Below are positions 741-50,062 of a stretch of 64,000 bases of DNA, in pieces. Under the pieces are notes generated by a model, which had not been told where the DNA came from, made no database searches, and saw only the letters and a list, made by a program, of their open reading frames with translations. Source of the DNA: an uncultured Dictyoglomota bacterium (GTDB taxonomy: Bacteria > Dictyoglomota > Dictyoglomia > Dictyoglomales > Dictyoglomaceae). Numbering within the stretch: the stretch's first letter is position 1; every line of letters begins with the position of its first letter. The stretch spans positions 32,001-96,000 of the forward strand of contig CAZZIO010000022.1 of assembly GCA_964654465.1 (NCBI GenBank), read 5' to 3'. Position numbers and translations under genes: made by a program.

Positions 741-2228
741 ATGAATAAAAAATTGAAATTTATTATAATCTTTTTATTTATTACCCTTTTATTTTTATTT
801 TATGCCCATGGATATAATTTACCTTGGTACAAAAATGCAACTTTTTATGAGATTTTCGTTAGATCTTTTGCAGATAGTGATGGTGATAAAGTGGGAGATT
901 TAAAAGGATTAACTAATAAATTAGATTATCTAAAAGAACTTAATATAGATGGCATATGGTTAATGCCCATATTTATGTCTGTAAGTTATCATGGATACGA
1001 TGTAACTGACTTTTATGACATTCATCCAGCATATGGAAATATGGAAGATTTTGAAGAATTAATTAAAGAAGCCCATAGAAAAAAGATAAAAATAATTCTT
1101 GATTTAGTTGTAAATCACACCTCATCCCGACATCCTTGGTTCATAAGTGCATCAAACTCTTATACTTCCCTATACAGAGATTATTATATTTGGAACAATA
1201 CAAAACCAACTCAGAACTCCAATTTTTGGTATTATAAAAATACGGGTTATTACTATGCCTTCTTTTGGTCTGAAATGCCTGATCTAAACTTTGATAATAC
1301 AAAGGTTAGAGAAGAAATCAAAAAGATAGCTAAATATTGGCTCGAAAAAGGTGTAGATGGATTTAGACTTGACGCTGTAAAGCATATATATGATGACGAT
1401 AATAAAAACATATTATGGTGGAAAGAGTTTTATGATTATTTAAAAAAAATCAAACCAGATGTATATCTTGTGGGAGAAGTCTGGGACAACGAATATGTAA
1501 TAGCAGAATATTATAAGTCACTTCCTTCGCTTTTTAACTTTCCCCTTTCAGACAAAATTATGAGTTCAGTAGCAAATCAAAGAGATTTAGGAATATGCGA
1601 TTTTTTAGATATGGAAAGAGAAATGTTTAAAGAAAATTATTCCGATTTTACTGATGCTACCTTCTTAAGAAATCATGATCAGGTTAGAGTAAGAACATCT
1701 TTTGGGGGGAGTATTGATAAAAGTCTACTTGCAGGTTCCATATACCTAACTCTTCCTGGAACTCCCTTTATATATTATGGTGAAGAAATAGGGATGGAAG
1801 GAGCAAAACCAGACGAATACATAAGAGAACCTTTTAAATGGACAGATCAAATGAATTCCAAAGAACAAACCTACTGGATAAAGCCTAAATATAATATTCC
1901 TAACAATGGCATATCCTATACTACAGAAAAAGAGGATAAGAATAGTATATTAAACCATTATAAACTACTCCTTAAACTAAGGAAAGAATATAAAGCTTTA
2001 TCCTTGGGAGAAATGAAAAAAATTAATCTAAATGATAAAAGTTTATTGGCATACCTAAGAGAAATAGATAATGAAGAAATATTAGTAATACATAATCTTA
2101 ATAGGGTAGAAAAGATGATAAGTCTAAACTTTACTTTTAAGAATATTCTCTATTCAAGAAACACTAACATAAAAGATAATAAAATAATATTAGGTCCCTT
2201 TAGCAGTATCATAATCGAAGTTCAATAA
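741..2228 (+). CDS. amyC: Secreted alpha-amylase, GH13
   Basis: Signal peptide; motifs DLVVNH, GFRLDAVKH, GEVW and FLRNHD; closely resembles D. thermophilum AmyC as recalled. Confidence 0.9.
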   Translation: MNKKLKFIIIFLFITLLFLFYAHGYNLPWYKNATFYEIFVRSFADSDGDKVGDLKGLTNKLDYLKELNIDGIWLMPIFMSVSYHGYDVTDFYDIHPAYGNMEDFEELIKEAHRKKIKIILDLVVNHTSSRHPWFISASNSYTSLYRDYYIWNNTKPTQNSNFWYYKNTGYYYAFFWSEMPDLNFDNTKVREEIKKIAKYWLEKGVDGFRLDAVKHIYDDDNKNILWWKEFYDYLKKIKPDVYLVGEVWDNEYVIAEYYKSLPSLFNFPLSDKIMSSVANQRDLGICDFLDMEREMFKENYSDFTDATFLRNHDQVRVRTSFGGSIDKSLLAGSIYLTLPGTPFIYYGEEIGMEGAKPDEYIREPFKWTDQMNSKEQTYWIKPKYNIPNNGISYTTEKEDKNSILNHYKLLLKLRKEYKALSLGEMKKINLNDKSLLAYLREIDNEEILVIHNLNRVEKMISLNFTFKNILYSRNTNIKDNKIILGPFSSIIIEVQ

Positions 2229-3170
2229 TTTTTCCCAGATTTTACTATCTACCATATAACCTGCTTTTTCATAAGCAATTAAGGCAGCTCCTACCGCTGG
2301 AGGTATTCTAAGAGGTACAACCTTACTTTTTTCTGCGAACATTTTCATCTTGGAATGAATATACTCAGGAAGCCAACTTGCTCCCTTATATATACTTCCG
2401 GCTAAAACAACTGGTGTTTCATCTTCTAATAAATCTAATTTTTGCATCAAATTATAAGCAGAAATTACAGTTTCATCTACTATTTTCTCTACAATTCTCC
2501 TTGCCACTTTATCTCCCTTTCTCACACACTCAAAAAGTAAAGGAGCAAGTCCTAAAACCTTATGATATTCCTCAGAGTTATAATATAATCTTTTGGCAAG
2601 TTCATTATAGTCCTTTGCAGAAAAATACTTCAGTACTTCACTTTCAAGGAGGGTTTTCTCCCCTCTACCATCATAAGATCTAAAAGCGTAGAATAACATC
2701 TCTTGTACTACAGATGAAGCACCTCCCCAATCTCCAAAAACATAGCCTTCCCCAAAATATCTATATGATCTTCCATCCTTTGATCTTCCATATCCATTAT
2801 TGCCAGTACCCATTATTATGATTACACCCCAGAACTCCATATTCCCAGCCCTTAAAGCAATGGGGGCATCATTTTCAATAACTAAATCCTTAGCTATGTT
2901 TAAGGATCTTGCATCTTTCTCCAACATCTCAAAATCCTCTGGGAAATCTGCACCTGCAAGCCCAAAACATGCAAAATCAAATATAATATCCCCTATTTTT
3001 TCTTTAGCCTTATCTATAGCTAACATCCAATTTTTCTTTGCCCTTTCAATACCTATACCCTCATAATTTCCAGGGCCAGATCTACCAAAGCCTACAATTT
3101 CTCCTTTTTCATTTAAAATAATAGCCTCTGTTTTTGTACCTCCAGCATCTAAGCCAAGAAAGTATCTCAT
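2190..3170 (-). CDS. BadF/BadG/BcrA/BcrD-family sugar kinase (N-acetylglucosamine kinase-like)
   Basis: GLDAGGTKT, GLAGAD, ENDA, GTG and GDWGG motifs. Confidence 0.85.
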   Translation of the reverse strand: MRYFLGLDAGGTKTEAIILNEKGEIVGFGRSGPGNYEGIGIERAKKNWMLAIDKAKEKIGDIIFDFACFGLAGADFPEDFEMLEKDARSLNIAKDLVIENDAPIALRAGNMEFWGVIIIMGTGNNGYGRSKDGRSYRYFGEGYVFGDWGGASSVVQEMLFYAFRSYDGRGEKTLLESEVLKYFSAKDYNELAKRLYYNSEEYHKVLGLAPLLFECVRKGDKVARRIVEKIVDETVISAYNLMQKLDLLEDETPVVLAGSIYKGASWLPEYIHSKMKMFAEKSKVVPLRIPPAVGAALIAYEKAGYMVDSKIWEKLLNFDYDTAKGT

Positions 3171-3180
3171 ATATTACTCC

Positions 3181-4431
3181 TTAACTTAATTTTGGGAAAT
3201 ATTCTTTATTTTCCTCTATTAATCTATTAAGAACTTTTTCCGCAAGAGTAAATGAAGAGATTAATGGATGTTGTGCAAGAGCAAAAACAGCCTTTTTATA
3301 CGAACCTTCCATAGCAGACTCTATTGTCAATCTCTCATATACTTTTACAGCCTGTATGATTCCTTTTACTTCGAGAGGTAAATTACCTATAATATACCTT
3401 TGAAACATATCATGTTTTACGTAAACCGGTATCTCCACCACTGAATCATCCGGAAGATCTCTTATAGCCCCATTATTCATAACGTTTATTATCTGAAACC
3501 CATCTTTCATACCTAAAAGATGCATAATCAGATTAACAGCAGATATTGAATAATATGCTCCCCCTCTTTTGGAAAGTTCCACTGGTTTATTATCTACCTT
3601 AGGGTCACTATATATTTTTAATAACTCTTCTTCTACTTTCATCACTTCTTCTGCTCTTTTTGGTTTATGTTTTAACTCTTCAACTTTTTCCTCTCTAAAA
3701 AAGTAATATCTGAGATAATAATTGGGGAATAAACCTAAAATGTCTATAATTCTTTTTTCCTCTTCCGACAATTTTTCTTTTGCCTTATCTAATAAATATT
3801 GAGTTTTATCTTCTCCCTTTATAAATATTCTTCTTACAAAACTCAAATGATTAAGACCAAAATAGTCTAAAAAGACCTCTTCTAAGCTTACACCTGATAA
3901 ATCAGCAAAAAATTTTTGAAAATTTATAGGCACATTACATAAACCTATAGCCTTTACTTTAGTATATCTGAGAAGCATTTCTGTGATTATTCCGGAAGGA
4001 TTAGTAAAATTAATAAACCAAGCATTAGGAGCATATCTTTCTACCTTTTTTGCTATATCATAAACCACTGGTATAGTTCTAAGAGCATTTGCAAATCCGC
4101 CTGCCCCAGTAGTCTCTTGTCCTAAAAGATTAAATTCTAAAGGAATAGTTTCATCTAAGAGTCGCGATTTATTACCTCCAACCCTTATTTGATTTATTAT
4201 AAAATCAGCTCCCTCTAAATTTTCTTCCAAATTTGTACTTTTTAAAAATTCTATTTCAGCTCCAGCTTTTCTGGCCATCCTTAATAGAAAATCATATACA
4301 ATATTTAATCTTTCAGTATTAATATCAATAAGAACAATTTTTAAAGGATGAACCTCTTGCCAAATATTTAAAAACCCTTCAATTAATTCTGGAGCATATG
4401 TACTACCTCCACCAATAACTACTACTTTCAT
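3181..4431 (-). CDS. 6-phospho-beta-glucosidase, GH4
   Basis: IGGGSTY, GQETTGAGG, NFTNP, GLCNVP and GLNH motifs. Confidence 0.92.
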   Translation of the reverse strand: MKVVVIGGGSTYAPELIEGFLNIWQEVHPLKIVLIDINTERLNIVYDFLLRMARKAGAEIEFLKSTNLEENLEGADFIINQIRVGGNKSRLLDETIPLEFNLLGQETTGAGGFANALRTIPVVYDIAKKVERYAPNAWFINFTNPSGIITEMLLRYTKVKAIGLCNVPINFQKFFADLSGVSLEEVFLDYFGLNHLSFVRRIFIKGEDKTQYLLDKAKEKLSEEEKRIIDILGLFPNYYLRYYFFREEKVEELKHKPKRAEEVMKVEEELLKIYSDPKVDNKPVELSKRGGAYYSISAVNLIMHLLGMKDGFQIINVMNNGAIRDLPDDSVVEIPVYVKHDMFQRYIIGNLPLEVKGIIQAVKVYERLTIESAMEGSYKKAVFALAQHPLISSFTLAEKVLNRLIEENKEYFPKLS

Positions 4432-44855: not shown

Positions 44856-45026
44856 TATTTAACTCCCCTATCTTTTTTAAAAATTATACCATAAAAAATG
44901 TTTGCACAATGGTTTTCTAGATAAGAGATTTTATTAGTTTATTTTACTAAAAATTAGACCCTATACATATTTTTAAAAAAGTAGTAAAATAAATGTAAAA
45001 TTTAAATGTAAGAGGTGAGTTTATAT

Positions 45027-46139
45027 ATGCCATTAAAAGTCACAAAGATAAATGATAATATTACTGTGATACAGACACCGGAACAGCCCTTTTTATCTAA
45101 TTCATATCTTGTTTCTTTAAATGGAAAAGAAAGAGTGTACCTTCTAGTTGACCCAACACCCCAAGAATATTTTAAAGACTTAATCTTTACATTAAACGAT
45201 CTTATAGGAGGAGTAGAAAATTTAGATTTAATCTACGTAAATCATCAGGATCCAGATGTTACATCATCCTTAGCACCTATAATGGATATGAATAAAAATG
45301 CTCTTCTTATTACATCTGAAGATACATGGAGATTAATAAGATTTTATGGTATTCCTAGAGAAAGATTTCAAGCCATAGAATATTTCCCAAATAGAAAAGT
45401 AGTACTTAAAACCAATGACACCTTAGAATTTATACATACACCCTTCTGCCACTTTAGAGGGGCTTGGATGCTATTTATTCCAGAGAAAAAAGCCCTCTTT
45501 TCAGGTGACCTTTTAGGAGGTCTATCTTCCAGAGAAGTTAATGGGGTATTTGCTACTGAAGATTCCTGGGAGGGAATCAAACTTTTTCATGAAATATATA
45601 TGCCATCAAAAGAAGCCTTGAGACTTGCAATAGATAAAATAGGTAGGTTAACTCCTCTTCCCGATATTATACTTCCACAACATGGTGACATAATAAGAAA
45701 AAATTTAATTGTTGATTTTTTAGCTAAACTCAACGATTTAGAAGTAGGTTTAGATTATATTAAGAAATATGAATCCCAACAACAATTTTACCTCTATGCC
45801 TTTAATGAGATTTTACAAAATTTAAAGAATAACTATTCAGATAAAGAAAAATTAATGCAAAAACTGAAGGAGATTAACTCTTCTCCATTTTTCCCAGAAT
45901 TAATACATTTTGAAAATGGAGTAGCAACAGAATTTAGAATCCAACCAGAAACAGCCATTGAATTGCTTTATGATAAATTTAGCGAGGATGCCCAACGAGA
46001 AGAAAGAGAAAGCTTAAGAATTGATATAATTAAAACTCTTAGAAAATATAATCTTGACATCCCTGAAGGTATATTATATGAAAGACAAAGAGTTTCTGAA
46101 AATCCATTTAGAAGAATCTTTAAAATATTCCAGAGGTGA
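45027..46139 (+). CDS. Metallo-beta-lactamase-fold di-iron protein (ODP/FprA N-domain-like) with a C-terminal extension
   Basis: NSYL, HQDPD, FCHF, FSGDL and PQHG motifs; start at 45027 or 45015. Confidence 0.8.
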   Translation: MPLKVTKINDNITVIQTPEQPFLSNSYLVSLNGKERVYLLVDPTPQEYFKDLIFTLNDLIGGVENLDLIYVNHQDPDVTSSLAPIMDMNKNALLITSEDTWRLIRFYGIPRERFQAIEYFPNRKVVLKTNDTLEFIHTPFCHFRGAWMLFIPEKKALFSGDLLGGLSSREVNGVFATEDSWEGIKLFHEIYMPSKEALRLAIDKIGRLTPLPDIILPQHGDIIRKNLIVDFLAKLNDLEVGLDYIKKYESQQQFYLYAFNEILQNLKNNYSDKEKLMQKLKEINSSPFFPELIHFENGVATEFRIQPETAIELLYDKFSEDAQREERESLRIDIIKTLRKYNLDIPEGILYERQRVSENPFRRIFKIFQR

Positions 46140-46144
46140 TATCA

Positions 46145-46345
46145 ATGCCTATATTTGAGTTTAAATGTGAAGAATGTGGAGAAAAATTTGAAAAACTTGT
46201 ATATTCTAATGAAGAGATACGATGTCCTAAGTGTGGAAGTAAAAATCTAAAAAAACTTATATCTTTGTTTGCCACATCTGGAATTGAACAAGGATCATCA
46301 GGTTGTTCTTCCTGTTCAGGAGGAAATTGTAGCTCTTGCCATTAA
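46145..46345 (+). CDS. FmdB-family zinc-ribbon protein
   Basis: MPIFEFKCEECG..CPKCGS..KLIS.F and a Cys-rich tail. Confidence 0.88.
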   Translation: MPIFEFKCEECGEKFEKLVYSNEEIRCPKCGSKNLKKLISLFATSGIEQGSSGCSSCSGGNCSSCH

Positions 46346-46346
46346 G

Positions 46347-46374
46347 AAAGGGAGAGGCTGTTACCTCTCCCTTT
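46347..46374. terminator. Bidirectional terminator
   Basis: AAAGGGAGAGG/CCTCTCCCTTT. Confidence 0.75.
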
Positions 46375-47484
46375 TTACATTCTAATTAATTCATAATCTC
46401 TACTTCCAAGTCCTATTTCTTCTGCATATTTTATTTGCAAACTCCAATCTATATTAGGATGTATAGCTTTAATTTTATCTTCTCCAGGATTAAAATTATC
46501 TGTTAAAGCTGTATCTTTTAGACCAATCTGTGAATTGATTAGGTCACAAGATGCCTGATCTATTGCAACTATATCCCAACTACCTAAAATTCCCACATCA
46601 GGAACAATATTAGCATCATGCCAACTTGCACAATCACAATCTGGAGATACATCCATTACAAAATTTATAAAGGCATATTTTGGTTCTTTTTGTTTCAGCA
46701 TTCCATAAGTAAATTCTGCCATTTTCTCTTGTAATCCTATAGCAGATTCATTCCATAAAATTTTTATAGCGGATGTAGGACAAACAACTGCACATTCGCC
46801 ACAACCTATACACAAATCAGGCCTTGTTAGCTTAGATTTCTTATTAACAAGTTCTAAGGCTCCAGTAGGACAGTGATTTACACATCTCTTACAGCCAATA
46901 CAAAGGTTGGGGTTAGGATCAGGTTTAAATTGGGCATGTTGCATTTGTTTTCCTGATCTTGGTGCACACCCCATACCTACATTTTTTATTGCTCCACCCA
47001 ATCCAGCACTCATATGACCCTTAACATGAGTTAAAACTAAGAGAAAATCTGCATCATGTATAGCTCCTGCCACTTTTATCTTCTTAAAATGTTTTAAATT
47101 TACCTCTACTTCCTTATAATAATCCCCATAAATTCCATCAGCTATTATTATGGGGGCTCCTACAGAGGAATATCCAAAACCATTGTAAATGGCTGATTCT
47201 AAATGATCCACAGCATTAGCTCTACCACCTTTATATAAAGTATTAGCATCAGTAAGAAAAGGTTTTCCTCCAAGCTCTCTTACAGCTTCCACCACCTGTC
47301 TAACAAATATAGGTCTTAAAAAGGCATGATTTCCTGGCTCTCCAAAATGAAGTTTTATAGCTACTATATCTCCCTTTGACATTCTTTCTTCTAAAAGCTT
47401 TTTAGCAAGTCTTTTTAATCTTCTCAGAACAGATTGATTTTCATTCTTTGCTCTTAGTGATAAAAAATATACAGGTGACTTCAT
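46375..47484 (-). CDS. DUF362-domain protein with an inserted 2x[4Fe-4S] ferredoxin
   Basis: VAIKLHFGE.GN, TDANTLY.G.R, HVKGH, two CxxCxxCxxxCP motifs and CDC. Confidence 0.88.
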   Translation of the reverse strand: MKSPVYFLSLRAKNENQSVLRRLKRLAKKLLEERMSKGDIVAIKLHFGEPGNHAFLRPIFVRQVVEAVRELGGKPFLTDANTLYKGGRANAVDHLESAIYNGFGYSSVGAPIIIADGIYGDYYKEVEVNLKHFKKIKVAGAIHDADFLLVLTHVKGHMSAGLGGAIKNVGMGCAPRSGKQMQHAQFKPDPNPNLCIGCKRCVNHCPTGALELVNKKSKLTRPDLCIGCGECAVVCPTSAIKILWNESAIGLQEKMAEFTYGMLKQKEPKYAFINFVMDVSPDCDCASWHDANIVPDVGILGSWDIVAIDQASCDLINSQIGLKDTALTDNFNPGEDKIKAIHPNIDWSLQIKYAEEIGLGSRDYELIRM

Positions 47485-48035
47485 AAATTTTCCTCCTTTA
47501 ATGCCTTAATAAAAAGATTTGGAATTTCATTATCTATACCAATGAAATGAATCTCATCGAAAACATTTGGATTATGCTTTATAAAATCAAGAACAGTATT
47601 TACAATAATTTTGGTGCCAAGCTCTGGTGGAAAACCAAAAATTCCGCAACTTATTGCAGGGATACTTATAGATTTAATACCCCTTTCTTTTGCAATCTCT
47701 AAGACACTTCTTACTGCTTTTCGAAGCTTTTCTTGTTCATTTCCTTCTCCCCATCGAGGACCTACAGTATGGATAACATATTTTGTCTTCAAACTTCCAC
47801 CAGATGTAACCATAGCTGATCCTACTGGAAGAGGTCCATATTTGGAAACATACTCATCGCTTTCCCTTTGTATTGTTTCACCACCTGCTTTAACTATAGC
47901 TCCTGCTACCCCACCTCCATGTTTTAAATAGGAGTTCGCTGGATTAACTATAGCATCTAAATTTTCTTGAGTTATATCTCCTTTAACAACCTTTAACTTA
48001 ACATCATTTATATCTTTTTCAAATAAAATTTCCAT
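47481..48035 (-). CDS. Macrodomain protein (ADP-ribose binding/hydrolase, YmdB-like)
   Basis: GDIT, AIVNPAN..L.HGGGVAGAI, VIHTVGP and PAISCGIFGFP motifs. Confidence 0.92.
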   Translation of the reverse strand: MEILFEKDINDVKLKVVKGDITQENLDAIVNPANSYLKHGGGVAGAIVKAGGETIQRESDEYVSKYGPLPVGSAMVTSGGSLKTKYVIHTVGPRWGEGNEQEKLRKAVRSVLEIAKERGIKSISIPAISCGIFGFPPELGTKIIVNTVLDFIKHNPNVFDEIHFIGIDNEIPNLFIKALKEENL

Positions 48036-48102
48036 GCCCTTTCACCTCCCTCTCAGTTTATTTCTTGTTATTATAAACCGAAAAGAGAAGCAAAAGGGCA
48101 TG
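48033..48102 (-). promoter_or_regulatory. Long 5'-UTR hairpin sequestering the SD and start codon (candidate translational switch or RNA thermometer)
   Basis: 29 bp with one bulge and 6 G-U pairs, which form only on the mRNA strand. Confidence 0.7.
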
Positions 48103-48122
48103 AAAAAATTATTATCTAAATA

Positions 48123-49076
48123 TTAGGTATAAAGACAACATTTAACAATTCTTCCATCTACCTCCACATCTGGTACTGGATTTTTACATTTATCCATTCT
48201 ATATGGACATCTACTTATAAATTTACAACCTTTCATTTGATATTCTTCTTCCTCTAAAGTAAGAATCTTAATATCCTTAGTCCATTTTTTCTTTGGATCT
48301 GGTTCTGGAATAGATTCTTTAAGTAACATTGTATATGGATGCTTAGGATCTGTTAGTACTTTATCAACAGATCCCATTTCCACTATTTCACCTCTAAACA
48401 TTATGGCGATCCTATCACTAACATAATATGCTGTGGCAAGATCATGAGTAATATATAAAACACTTAACCCTATTTCTTTTTTAAGTTTTGCAAAGAGATT
48501 TACAATGGACATTCTCAAAGAAGCATCAACCATTGATACAGGCTCATCAGCCACAAGAAGAGTAGGATTAGTAAGTAAAGACCTGGCAATAGATATTCTT
48601 TGAAGCTGTCCTCCAGAAAACTCACTTGGATATTTATTTACCACGTCATTCCAAGTAAGTCCTACCAAATTTAATGCATTTTCTATCACTTCCTGATAAT
48701 TACTATTTGCACCAAGATTTTTAGCAGTTTCTACAAGATAATTATGGACCATTCTTAATGGATTAAAAGTTTCAAATGGATTCTGAAAAACCGCTTGTAC
48801 TTCTTTTCTAATAGACTTCTTATCTTCCTTTTGAGATTCTATTATATTTTTTCCTTTGTATATTATCTTTCCAGATGTAGGTTCAAGAAATCCCAAAATA
48901 ATCTTGGCAACTGTAGTCTTACCACTACCACTTTCTCCAGCAAGCGTAAAAATTTCAGATTCTTTAATATTAAAGGAGACATTATTAACAGCACTTATCT
49001 TCACTCGAGAAAACATAGAACCCAATGTAAAAATTTTTGTTAAATTCTCAACCCTTAATAGTATCTCTTTATTCAT
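48123..49076 (-). CDS. Opp-type ABC ATPase (OppF-like)
   Basis: GESGSGKTT, FSGGQLQR and HPYT; start adjusted to the SD-supported ATG. Confidence 0.9.
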   Translation of the reverse strand: MNKEILLRVENLTKIFTLGSMFSRVKISAVNNVSFNIKESEIFTLAGESGSGKTTVAKIILGFLEPTSGKIIYKGKNIIESQKEDKKSIRKEVQAVFQNPFETFNPLRMVHNYLVETAKNLGANSNYQEVIENALNLVGLTWNDVVNKYPSEFSGGQLQRISIARSLLTNPTLLVADEPVSMVDASLRMSIVNLFAKLKKEIGLSVLYITHDLATAYYVSDRIAIMFRGEIVEMGSVDKVLTDPKHPYTMLLKESIPEPDPKKKWTKDIKILTLEEEEYQMKGCKFISRCPYRMDKCKNPVPDVEVDGRIVKCCLYT

Positions 49077-50062
49077 AGCTCTCTCTCCTTTGAATATAAA
49101 AAGCATGCTACTCTATGTTCTGAATTTACACTTACAAATTCAGGTACATTAACTTTACATTCTTCCATAGCTTGACCACACCTTGGGTGAAATCTACAAC
49201 CAGATGGTGGGTTTAAAAGGGATGGTGGTGCACCTGGAGCACTTACCCTATATGATTTATCTCCAATCTTGGGCAAAGCTCCTATAAGATATTTAGTATA
49301 AGGATGTAGTGGGCTCTCAAAAATCTCGGATGTAGGAGCCTCCTCTACAATCTTTCCAGCATACATTATAGCAATCCTATCAGATATACTTGCATGTACA
49401 CCCATATCATGAGTAACAAGAATAACAGTGTTCTTCAAATTCTTTTGTATTTCTTTTAATAATTGAATCACTGCTCTTTGAGCCACTACATCCAAAGCAG
49501 TAGAAGGTTCATCAGCTACTATGATCTTCGGACTAAGAATAGTAGCAAGAGCTATTGTAACCCTTTGTCGCATACCCCCAGACAATTGGTGAGGATAAGC
49601 ATCCAAAACCTTCGTGGGCAATCCTAGTAAAGCAAAATGCTCTTCTATATTTTTTCTCCAAGCACTTTTATCAGAAATATCAACATGAGAGCCAATAAAA
49701 TCCCAAAAAGATTCAATTATTTTTACCACTGGATTTAATACACTCATTGATCCTTGAGGAATATATGAAATATAATTCCACCTTATACTCTCTAAGGACC
49801 CATTCGTAGAAAAAATATTTTTATATTCATTATCTATTCTATAATAGACTTTTCCACCTACTACATTTAGTGGTGGCTCTACCATACCATAAAGAGTTTT
49901 AATAAGAGTACTCTTTCCACACCCTGATTCGCCAGCAATGCCATAAATTTCATTCTCTTTAATAGATATATTTATATTATCAACTGCTCTTACAGAATGA
50001 AGCTTACCCCCTATATCTAATAGATAATAAGCCTTTAAATTTTCTGCCTTTAAGATCTCCAT
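49073..50062 (-). CDS. Opp-type ABC ATPase (OppD-like)
   Basis: [17 protein letters not shown] and GCRFHPRC motifs. Confidence 0.92.
   Translation of the reverse strand: MEILKAENLKAYYLLDIGGKLHSVRAVDNINISIKENEIYGIAGESGCGKSTLIKTLYGMVEPPLNVVGGKVYYRIDNEYKNIFSTNGSLESIRWNYISYIPQGSMSVLNPVVKIIESFWDFIGSHVDISDKSAWRKNIEEHFALLGLPTKVLDAYPHQLSGGMRQRVTIALATILSPKIIVADEPSTALDVVAQRAVIQLLKEIQKNLKNTVILVTHDMGVHASISDRIAIMYAGKIVEEAPTSEIFESPLHPYTKYLIGALPKIGDKSYRVSAPGAPPSLLNPPSGCRFHPRCGQAMEECKVNVPEFVSVNSEHRVACFLYSKEREL

Follow-up and report, generated by a model that had tools for sequence, protein, structure and literature searches.

Results

Gene Content and Features of the Locus

The window, a stretch of 64,000 nucleotides from an uncultured member of the Dictyoglomaceae, carries on its minus strand an opp/dpp-type peptide ABC transporter operon whose final gene encodes an OppF-like ATPase. 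The oppF frame is open back to position 49106 and ends with the stop codon TAA at 48125-48123; permease and ATPase ORFs are located upstream of it on the same strand. A spacer of 87 nt separates oppF from a gene encoding a Macro-domain protein (macro), whose orthologues align from residue 1 onwards. The next gene codes for a DUF362 protein, in which two 4Fe-4S motifs were recognised; its start and the macro stop share 4 nt. This arrangement, with DUF362 located 3' of macro, was detected only in the genus of the window (four genomes). The assignment of both genes, proposed earlier from the sequence alone, was confirmed by Pfam matches to Macro (E 3e-41) and DUF362 (E 5e-51). The features of the locus are as follows:

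46375..47484, minus strand: gene for a DUF362 protein with two 4Fe-4S motifs (PF04015, E 5e-51; Fer4, E 1.9e-15)
47481..48035, minus strand: gene for the Macro-domain protein, 184 aa (PF01661, E 3.2e-41)
48021..48028, minus strand: U-tract UUUUAUUU directly 3' of the stem, covering macro codons 3-5, which reads as a terminator tail
48029..48061, minus strand: 3' arm of the hairpin with SD GGGAGGUG, spacer, AUG and codon 2 (from sequence and fold)
48062..48072, minus strand: hairpin loop of 11 nt, variable in sequence and length among the orthologues
48070..48075, minus strand: TATAAT, 34 nt before the AUG, probable -10 element of the macro operon promoter
48073..48106, minus strand: 5' arm of the hairpin (anti-AUG, anti-spacer, anti-SD; from the MFE fold and covariation with the 3' arm)
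48111..48138, minus strand: TTGTCT-16-GATAAT, a promoter-like motif considered non-functional or non-conserved
48123..49076, minus strand: gene for the OppF-like ATPase (ABC_tran, E 1.3e-32; oligo_HPY, E 7.8e-19)

Structure and Uniqueness of the Hairpin

The sequence-only reading had described a hairpin of 29 bp (48102-48073 with 48061-48033) with one bulged U, an 11-nt loop and six G-U wobbles, enclosing the SD and the start codon of macro. Inspection of the sequence and the MFE fold reproduced this hairpin and extended its helix by 4 bp (U48103-48106 with G48032-A48029), so that 48106-48073 pairs with 48061-48029 over 33 bp with seven wobbles, the bulged U (48086) and the loop (48072-48062). 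SD (48050-48043) and AUG (48035-48033) lie wholly within the 3' arm, and the 5' arm is placed entirely in the spacer downstream of the oppF stop codon. The minus-strand segment 48125-48020 folds with -46.3 kcal/mol. Its 200 dinucleotide shuffles average -16.4 kcal/mol with an sd of 3.2, and none of them reached the energy of the native sequence (z -9.3). The plus strand of the region folds with only -22.2 kcal/mol, which agrees with the strand specificity earlier deduced from the wobbles.

Apart from the hairpin itself no second copy was found in the whole 1.91-Mb genome (next best E 0.05), and an origin from a repeat or MITE was therefore rejected. Among 1750 ORFs, called with a crude in-house heuristic on which all genome-wide statistics given here are based, it represents the strongest hairpin occluding SD and AUG. 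A search of positions 47500-48700 against Rfam (E up to 10) yielded no family at threshold but only generic hairpin-like sub-threshold matches, the best of which were of miRNA-precursor type (36.7 bits, gathering threshold 77) and Phe_leader (26.6 bits, gathering threshold 55).

Conservation and Covariation

For the comparison 12 orthologous loci (L009-L020) were chosen, and loci L021-L035 with an identity of at most 48% were set aside. The junction of oppF and macro is present in five of the 12 loci (L009-L013), which derive from the genus of the window and one sister genus, and all five, the complete genomes G001 and G003 among them, possess the hairpin. Their z-scores range from -4.1 to -9.1, with none of 200 shuffles as good in any of the species, and in each of the five the sense strand folds more stably than the antisense strand. 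At the seven remaining loci (L014-L020), where the upstream context is different, the hairpin is missing.

Within the 5' arm the core CAUGCC is unchanged across the five species and the remainder covaries with the 3' arm. The spacer between SD and AUG and the opposing 5' arm change together from U-A to A-U in G003, and in G005 GCCCUUU/AAAGGGC is replaced by GCCUCUC/GAGAGGC, each arm having lost 1 nt at a matching position. For the 14 outer pairs, 94% of the cells of a MAFFT alignment, with sequences trimmed to begin at the 5' arm, are paired, versus 33-54% after a shift of the partner by 1-3 columns; two of the four unpaired cells are artefacts of the alignment, in which G005 with its deletions in both arms is one column out of register. 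Two-sided changes occur at two of the 14 pairs; among 500 shuffles, values as high as those observed arose 14 times. The earlier note had proposed a comparison of leaders across orthologues, and this comparison shows that the hairpin is kept with compensatory changes in five species of the Dictyoglomaceae.

Other properties are less constant. The helices are shorter in the relatives (about 14-19 bp in G001, G005 and G003), the orthologues enclose 35-58 nt between the arms, and the arms are 60 to 88 nt apart, depending on the species. The wobbles are not conserved, as G003 has Watson-Crick pairs in their place. Everything except the arms, the TATAAT and the U-tract is variable.

A scan of metagenomes provided 34 loci. 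Among the best eight (L036-L043, at least 64% identity) six carry the hairpin, each of them nearly the same as a lineage that the five genomes already represent, and two (L040 and L041) do not. A search of genomes across the family returned nothing beyond the 10 genomes already compared. In four of the five g3 genomes another gene follows within a few nt of the best oppF orthologue; this synteny says nothing about an ancestral terminator. Because the five species form one clade, the co-occurrence of hairpin, U-tract and TATAAT counts roughly as one retained evolutionary origin and not as five independent events.

Putative Promoters

All five species with the hairpin have a perfect TATAAT in its loop, at a distance of 32-35 nt from the AUG. 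Across 722 genes of the genome TATAAT accumulates 30-44 nt before gene starts, with 111 occurrences in three 5-nt bins and 1-20 per bin elsewhere, and the motif in the loop falls within this peak. The -35 element is unrecognisable (two to three of six matches across the five species; TGn in two of them), and a similarly weak -35 with two of six matches is common to 37 of the 111 promoters of the peak. From the position of the motif, transcription of macro probably starts at about 48063 +/- 2. RNA beginning at 48064 has a predicted energy of -5.5 kcal/mol (z -0.04) and thus no significant structure, which supports the earlier suggestion that a second, shorter transcript with a free SD could arise from the loop.

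The upstream TTGTCT-16-GATAAT, which had been put forward as a promoter preceding the hairpin, does exist as a motif. As a promoter it found no support: matches of this quality (9 of 12 consensus positions) occur nine times in 2.2 kb versus 9.0 expected from shuffles, its -10, at a distance of 75 nt from the AUG, falls outside the -10 peak of the genome, and this element reads GGTAAT in G002 and is missing in G003, G001 and G005. No conserved promoter was detected upstream of the 5' arm across the five species.

U-Tract and Terminator-Like Features

At the base of the stem the GC-rich CCAUGCCC pairs with GGGCAUGG, and the U-tract follows at once. UUUUAU abuts the stem in all five species with the hairpin and in none of the seven orthologues without it. 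The encoded residues vary (I/V/F, L, F/L/Y) while TTTTAT is invariant; TTTT at the equivalent position is found in 51 of 1750 ORFs (2.9%). The spacer between oppF and macro contains no other terminator-like site.

The predicted energy of the hairpin at 75 C ranges from -7.9 to -13.2 kcal/mol across the five species. For 335 canonical candidates consisting of a hairpin plus U-tract in the genome the 5th percentile at this temperature is -9.0 and the minimum -11.5 kcal/mol, so that the predicted stability of the hairpin is within the range of the strongest canonical terminator candidates. The candidates were collected in windows of 72 nt, which are too short for this hairpin; a scan with 110 nt recovered it. 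Its geometry is atypical: it has 33 bp, seven wobbles and an 11-nt loop here, and the relatives enclose 35-58 nt. In the folded span of the 335 candidates the median number of pairs is 18, and their loops have a median length of 6 and do not exceed 22. The best candidates have GC-rich stems of 13-20 bp and loops of 3-9 nt. Large terminator loops fold slowly and usually terminate poorly. A scan of 367 U-tracts near ORF starts revealed no second hairpin which spans an RBS, ends at the tract and is stable at 75 C, the next best having -2.3 kcal/mol. The combination of hairpin, U-tract and RBS is a one-off in this genome.

Discussion

The Hairpin as a Probable Boundary Between Two Transcription Units

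The explanation that we favour, with somewhat more confidence than doubt, is that the hairpin serves both as terminator of the opp operon and as a lock on the macro RBS on read-through RNA, while the macro operon is expressed as a short translatable mRNA from its own promoter in the loop. This reading builds on the structure of the hairpin, its conservation, covariation, strand specificity and predicted thermal stability, and on a -10 and a U-tract that are conserved in sequence and place; that opp transcription ends here, that macro transcription starts in the loop and that translation is blocked are steps that we infer from the sequence. The hairpin would thereby represent a boundary element separating two transcription units, with three functions packed into the 87-nt spacer and the first macro codons. 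A polymerase arriving from the opp operon would transcribe 5' arm, loop and 3' arm, and the resulting helix with UUUUAUUU would form the intrinsic opp terminator, a role suggested because the GC-rich base is immediately followed by this tract. On opp RNA which escapes termination, the SD and AUG of macro would be shut in the 33-bp helix, so that foreign transcription should yield no translation of the macro operon; RNase III could also cleave the long duplex on such RNA. The macro-DUF362 operon would be transcribed from a promoter with the TATAAT at 48075-48070 as its -10. Starting near 48063, this RNA would be devoid of the 5' arm, its ribosome site would be open and termination at the U-tract would not occur. 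Owing to the position of the promoter in the loop, the same DNA would terminate and silence foreign transcripts and let home transcripts through. The sequence-only reading had left the choice between gating by temperature, by a trans factor or RNase III, and by promoter choice; of these the evidence favours the last.

A more far-reaching version of this reading is held more tentatively. It is possible, though we would not assume it, that the opp terminator is actually built from the SD, spacer, AUG and codon 2 of macro, with codons 3-5 as U-tract and the promoter in the loop. In this combined arrangement selection would preserve the U-tract as a nucleotide sequence and tolerate changes in the amino acids that it encodes. 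In a literature search no description of terminator, RBS lock and loop promoter in such a combination was found.

Some further mechanisms were considered and discarded. Translational coupling to oppF is not compatible with the position of the 5' arm: since it begins 11-27 nt past the oppF stop in all five species, ribosomes translating oppF cannot open it. For a riboswitch or leader-peptide attenuator no Rfam family reached the threshold, and loop and flanks are not conserved. A Phe leader peptide was likewise rejected; the frame beginning at an AUG in the 5' arm has no SD, and it is Phe-rich in the window with a different composition in the relatives.

Alternative Explanations

In an alternative that we regard as unlikely, opp and macro are joined on a polycistronic mRNA on which the hairpin acts as a switch with OFF as its default, to be opened in trans. 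An RNA-binding protein, an sRNA, an SD-freeing cut by RNase III or re-initiation at an AUG which the 5' arm is bound to contain would be the candidate openers, none of which we consider probable. A helix of 33 bp would suit RNase III, for which the genome codes (PF14622, E 3e-36), whereas the helices of about 14-19 bp in G001, G005 and G003 are short for this enzyme. The AUG in the 5' arm is present in all five species, yet its frame is not preceded by an SD and varies in length from five codons upwards. Further support for the switch may come from an RNA library, in which a contig of a relative with about 94% identity (1170 nt, depth 17) links oppF, hairpin and macro (positions 47503-48666). 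The contig belongs to the one RNA run, a metatranscriptome with a share of 0.06, among 20 runs which contain the locus; it was examined as assembled contigs, and as an assembly it cannot prove one continuous transcript. If the contig represents RNA, termination of opp would be at best partial, and carry-over of DNA is an equally possible source. A transcriptome paper on Dictyoglomus was not found in the literature. Neither an alternative (anti-hairpin) fold nor a conserved aptamer-like element was detected that a switch could use, and the conserved, well-placed -10 in the loop offers a separate transcript as the simpler route of expression.

It is also rather improbable that the hairpin is a plain intrinsic terminator of opp which overlaps macro as a result of the short spacer, with occlusion of the RBS as an unselected by-product. 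U-tract, GC-rich stem base and position at the end of the operon speak for it in the same way as for the combined function of terminator and RBS lock, and both explanations differ only in the function under selection. In this genome, however, GC-rich stems of 13-20 bp with loops of 3-9 nt attain equal stability, and the fact that the stem is made of SD and AUG and is kept by compensatory changes in five species suggests that occlusion matters.

Far less probable is an RNA thermometer, as proposed in the sequence-only reading, in which a wobble-rich helix melts with heat and frees the SD. Known RNA thermometers pair the SD through G-U wobbles, and here, too, an imperfect helix with wobbles and a bulge covers SD and AUG, the SD being paired mostly via wobbles. 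What is absent, by prediction, is melting within the growth range of the organism, which we take to be about 50-80 C: for 65, 75 and 85 C the helix of the window has predicted energies of -20.5, -12.8 and -5.8 kcal/mol, respectively, and it should remain closed throughout. The mean probability of being unpaired over SD to AUG is 0.08 at 75 C in the window and reaches its highest value up to 85 C, 0.17, at that temperature, and at 75 C it ranges from 0.07 to 0.31 across the window and the orthologues. The four orthologous hairpins also stay folded, with G003 keeping -8.6 kcal/mol at 85 C. These are in silico values, and they are approximate because nearest-neighbour parameters had to be extrapolated to 75-95 C. 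Moreover, the wobbles are replaced by Watson-Crick pairs in G003, upstream of the hairpin no conserved promoter was recognised that would make it part of the macro leader, and for ROSE, fourU and other thermometer families no Rfam match was obtained at positions 47500-48700 even at E up to 10.

A DNA-level element at the macro promoter, either a repressor operator palindrome or a cruciform, is very unlikely: the core arms CCATGCCC and GGGCATGG do form an exact inverted repeat around the -10, but the arm spacing differs between species (60-88 nt), the 30-nt arms of the window are only 77% Watson-Crick at the DNA level whereas the sense RNA pairs throughout, and in five of five species the sense strand has the better fold.

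Relation to Known Systems

Fold-back inhibition shields IS10 and IS50 from outside transcription: on RNA that enters the element by read-through, the RBS of the transposase is paired with a segment upstream of it, whereas transcripts from the element's own promoter begin within the structure. Unlike these mobile elements, the hairpin described here is unique in its genome and is not associated with a transposase. With Rho-independent terminators it shares the GC-rich base, the directly following U-run and the location after the last gene of an operon. It differs from them in a far longer, wobble-rich stem, in the up to 58 nt enclosed in relatives, and in that 3' arm and U-tract are at the same time SD, AUG and first codons of the next gene.

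The closest precedents are genes of the sigma-B regulon of B. subtilis (ctc, yvrE), for which isoform-specific sequestration of the RBS was demonstrated experimentally (McCormick et al. 2021, PMC8208050). There, too, SD and start codon are tied up in a long helix with a preceding segment of the long isoform, which is driven from upstream, and the gene concerned is placed at the end of an operon to which it is unrelated. The short isoform of those genes starts in the loop or the downstream stem and is freely translated, as we propose for macro. For these cases, too, conservation in relatives is reported, and the study states explicitly that they lack a terminator. The locus analysed here differs from them by a TATAAT of housekeeping type, a 5' arm wholly past the stop codon and a U-tract after the helix, which makes it resemble a terminator as well. 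For sigG of B. subtilis a hairpin of more than 20 bp was proposed to block translation of read-through from spoIIGA-sigE (PMC5942855); as we propose for our case, the large hairpin arises only on read-through from the upstream operon and is impossible on RNA from the gene's own promoter. The sigG promoter depends on sigma-F/sigma-G and is developmental, and the accessible part of that source mentions no role in termination. In phage T4, the genes e, soc, I-TevI, I-TevII, I-TevIII and segB, as well as mobE of Aeh1, have, as experiments have shown, their RBS sequestered on early or middle read-through RNA by very stable structures, with the late promoter placed so that the late RNA is devoid of the inhibitory arm (PMC2988022). 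These genes are part of a temporal programme with a phage-specific late promoter, unlike the chromosomal operon boundary of a thermophile considered here.

No Rfam family reached the threshold; the architecture matches a known one and is not the new kind of switch that had been suggested earlier. It points to no new regulatory principle and says nothing specific on ADP-ribose or Fe-S biology. For annotation it teaches that a long hairpin which locks an SD is not necessarily a sensor. If confirmed, the locus would extend isoform-specific RBS sequestration from Bacillus and T4 to the Dictyoglomaceae and to a promoter of housekeeping type, and it would be an example of nucleotide-level selection, on the U-tract, at the very beginning of a coding sequence, in its first codons. 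It would likewise provide a covariation-supported case of operon insulation in the compact genome of a deep-branching thermophile family, in which termination, the block of leak-through translation and the restart of transcription are accomplished within about 110 nt.

Structure of the hairpin and neighboring genes

On the minus strand between an oppF-like gene and a macro-domain gene, a hairpin was delineated by a minimum free energy (MFE) fold of 48125-48020:

48125-48123, minus: stop codon TAA of the oppF-like ABC ATPase gene (Pfam ABC_tran and oligo_HPY)
48106-48073 paired with 48061-48029, minus: 5' arm and 3' arm of the 33-bp helix
48086, minus: single bulged U (MFE fold)
48072-48062, minus: hairpin loop of 11 nt (MFE fold)
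48050-48043, minus: SD, located inside the 3' arm, as is the macro AUG
48035-47481, minus: macro-domain gene, ATG at 48035-48033 (Pfam Macro, E 3e-41)
47484-46375, minus: DUF362 gene with two 4Fe-4S motifs (Pfam, E 5e-51)

The oppF stop codon and the macro ATG are separated by 87 nt, and permease and ATPase genes of an opp/dpp-type transporter are located further upstream of oppF on the same strand. The sequencing runs containing this stretch are labeled as hot-spring metagenome. On the plus strand, a gene for an ODP-family metallo-beta-lactamase-fold protein (45015-46345; PF19583, E 1e-48) overlaps a 69-aa zinc-ribbon gene (PF09723) by 4 nt; the pair is convergent with the DUF362 gene, and 29 nt (46346-46374) separate the two stop codons.

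The sequence-only reading had described a 29-bp hairpin with one bulged U and an 11-nt loop that locks the SD and the AUG. This was confirmed in every detail, and the helix reaches 33 bp with seven G-U wobbles, six of them within the 29 bp. The MFE of -46.3 kcal/mol compares with -16.4 ± 3.2 in 200 dinucleotide shuffles (z -9.3) and with only -22.2 kcal/mol for the complementary strand, which bears out the strand-specific, RNA-level element deduced earlier from the wobbles. A search of the whole genome (1.91 Mb, 72 contigs) found no second copy of the hairpin. It is also the strongest SD/AUG-occluding hairpin among 1750 ORF starts, defined by a crude heuristic calling and folded from -100 to +15. 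The runner-up among single-helix hairpins of this kind (-26.8 kcal/mol) lies outside the window, on the minus strand of contig C65 of the same genome, where the ORF starts at reverse-complement index 140567. There, a 5' arm rich in pyrimidines is paired with GGGGAGGUGGAGCAGAAGUG around a segment that includes TATAAA, and the stem is not followed by a U-tract; this hairpin may be a further RBS lock of the isoform-specific type.

An AUG in the 5' arm (48099-48101) is unavoidable because CAUG is self-complementary. It opens a 19-codon frame through 48043-48045, with the UGA within the SD and four Phe among the first nine codons, which probably accounts for a sub-threshold match to Rfam Phe_leader (26.6 bits). 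The frame was judged incidental, since it lacks an SD and varies among the other hairpin-bearing genomes, comprising five codons in G001 and differing in composition in G003 and G005.

Conservation within the Dictyoglomaceae

The macro protein was present in 26 of the 41 genomes searched, and the 12 closest loci were compared in detail. In five species (the window, three further genomes of its genus and one of a sister genus) the macro gene directly follows oppF, and all five possess the hairpin, in which a 5' arm starting with CAUGCC pairs with the stretch spanning SD through AUGG. Their z-values are -9.1, -7.9, -7.1, -4.5, and -4.1, with none of 200 shuffles as good in any case, and in each species the sense strand folds more stably than the antisense strand. 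The hairpin is absent at all seven other loci (five of a third genus of the family and two more distant), where the upstream genes differ, and a search of metagenome contigs for further lineages yielded none that were new.

The leader alignment proposed in the sequence-only reading revealed that the hairpin is kept via compensatory changes in the five species. An A-U pair in G003 replaces the U-A of the other species, and the SD wobbles become Watson-Crick pairs there; G005 carries GCCUCUC/GAGAGGC as opposed to GCCCUUU/AAAGGGC in the window, and each of its arms lacks one base, the two deletions being matched; in G002 one G-C pair changed to G-U with pairing retained. Within the 14 outer pairs, 94% of the cells pair, compared with 33-54% if the partner is slid by one to three columns, two of the four unpaired cells being a register shift in G005 left by MAFFT. 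Two of these pairs change on both sides, and the observed values were reached by 14 of 500 shuffles. Because only five related sequences contribute, these patterns lend moderate, not overwhelming, support to selection on pairing. Outside the arms the spacer is variable, and the arms enclose between 11 and 58 nt. As the five species form one clade, the co-occurrence of features amounts to one retained origin. The hairpin is a real, conserved, RNA-level element.

The oppF orthologue of G005 (locus L011, positions 2143-3248) matches in two pieces (query 1-78 and 68-316) about 120 nt apart, which suggests an insertion or frame disruption, and DUF362 is not located downstream of macro in this genome. 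At four loci of the third genus (L070, L072-L074) other genes start a few nt past the oppF orthologue, their SD overlapping the oppF stop. They encode a 215-219 aa protein followed by a Cys-rich protein of ~250 aa in three genomes and a 464-aa protein in one. The family as a whole thus does not share this end of the operon.

Candidate terminator and promoter elements

Immediately after the last base pair, TTTTAT is invariant in the alignment of the five hairpin species, with differing encoded residues (I/V/F at codon 3, F/L/Y at codon 5). The motif was found in none of the seven hairpin-less orthologues, and just 51 of the 1750 ORFs (2.9%) have TTTT at the same position. With its GC-rich base and the U-run behind it, at the end of an operon, the helix looks like an intrinsic terminator.

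A perfect TATAAT is located 32-35 nt ahead of the macro AUG in all five species, with a TGn in two of them. Among 722 predicted genes of the genome that are preceded by 65 nt or more of non-coding DNA, exact TATAAT matches peak 30-44 nt before start codons (31, 48, and 32 in three 5-nt bins, 1-20 per bin elsewhere), so the loop TATAAT sits exactly where -10 boxes of this organism sit. Its -35 element is poor (2/6), as in 37 of the 111 peak promoters. In these promoters T and G are enriched at -3/-2 (TGn), and TTG at -23 to -21 is no more than faint; short 5' UTRs of ~23-37 nt and -10-dominated promoters are suggested for this genome. RNA starting at 48064 has no significant predicted structure (-5.5 kcal/mol, z -0.04), in line with the earlier proposal that the loop TATAAT would yield a short transcript with a free SD. 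The other promoter put forward there, TTGTCT-16-GATAAT, did not hold up: it lies 75 nt before the AUG, matches of its kind are no commoner than in shuffles, and none of the four other species has it intact.

Proposed function and alternative explanations

The reading we favor, with somewhat better than even confidence, is a terminator and RBS lock with a promoter in the loop. Polymerase arriving from opp would form the full helix and stop at the U-tract, and the macro SD and AUG would be locked on any read-through RNA. The loop promoter would drive the macro operon with a short RNA that lacks the 5' arm and is neither terminated nor occluded. Such a boundary element is the simplest model using all conserved parts. 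In all five species the 5' arm starts 11-27 nt past the oppF stop codon, so ribosomes finishing oppF cannot open the helix; this counts against a translational-coupling device, which was rejected. The sole RNA run with any of the stretch provided a 1170-nt assembled contig of a ~94% identical relative spanning oppF, hairpin, and macro, which may reflect partial read-through or DNA in the library. A further weakness of the favored reading is that the helix is far longer than ordinary terminators of this genome, and the loops of the relatives are far more open; the genome also has only this one arrangement of its kind.

A switch gated by a factor appears unlikely. The genome carries a gene for RNase III, which could cleave the long duplex, but the helices comprise only ~14-19 bp in three of the five species. 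We regard a plain terminator with incidental occlusion as slightly less plausible; the terminator-like features would suit it as well.

The thermometer claimed in the sequence-only reading is highly improbable. Dictyoglomus grows at ~50-80°C. The five hairpins were folded from 37 to 95°C, with parameters that are approximate when extrapolated this far, and the helix was not predicted to open within the plausible growth range. Predicted dG of the window helix is -20.5, -12.8, and -5.8 at 65, 75, and 85°C, respectively, with a mean unpaired probability from SD to AUG of 0.03, 0.08, and 0.17; the orthologues range from -7.9 to -13.2 at 75°C. For 335 hairpin-plus-U-tract candidates in the genome, the 5th percentile at 75°C is -9.0 and the minimum -11.5, so the predicted stability is that of the strongest canonical terminator candidates. 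Length and wobbles thus appear to be what it takes to build a heat-stable helix from an SD-AUG segment in a genome of 31.6% GC and do not resemble a melting device. A DNA operator has next to no probability for a strand-specific element.

Comparison with known systems

The suggestion of a novel switch was not supported, as the same logic is established in other systems. Fold-back inhibition in IS10 also follows a parallel logic. In B. subtilis sigma-B regulon genes that end sigma-A operons, extended structures over SD and start codon are described to repress translation, initiation by sigma-B within the loop or downstream stem releases repression, translation efficiency differs up to 100-fold, and the authors state for their sigma-B cases that no terminator evolved (PMC8208050). 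A hairpin of at least 20 bp at sigG was proposed to block translation on spoIIGA-sigE read-through RNA and cannot form on RNA made from the sigG promoter (PMC5942855). The same arrangement is reported from phage T4 for I-TevI, I-TevII, I-TevIII, segB, e, soc, and others (PMC2988022). Unlike these systems, the Dictyoglomaceae case uses a housekeeping-type -10, has its 5' arm beyond the stop codon and adds what looks like a terminator tail. A literature search for terminator, RBS lock, and loop promoter in combination found no description, which is weak evidence of absence. The logic of the RBS lock is already known elsewhere; its combination with the other functions in the Dictyoglomaceae is possibly new.
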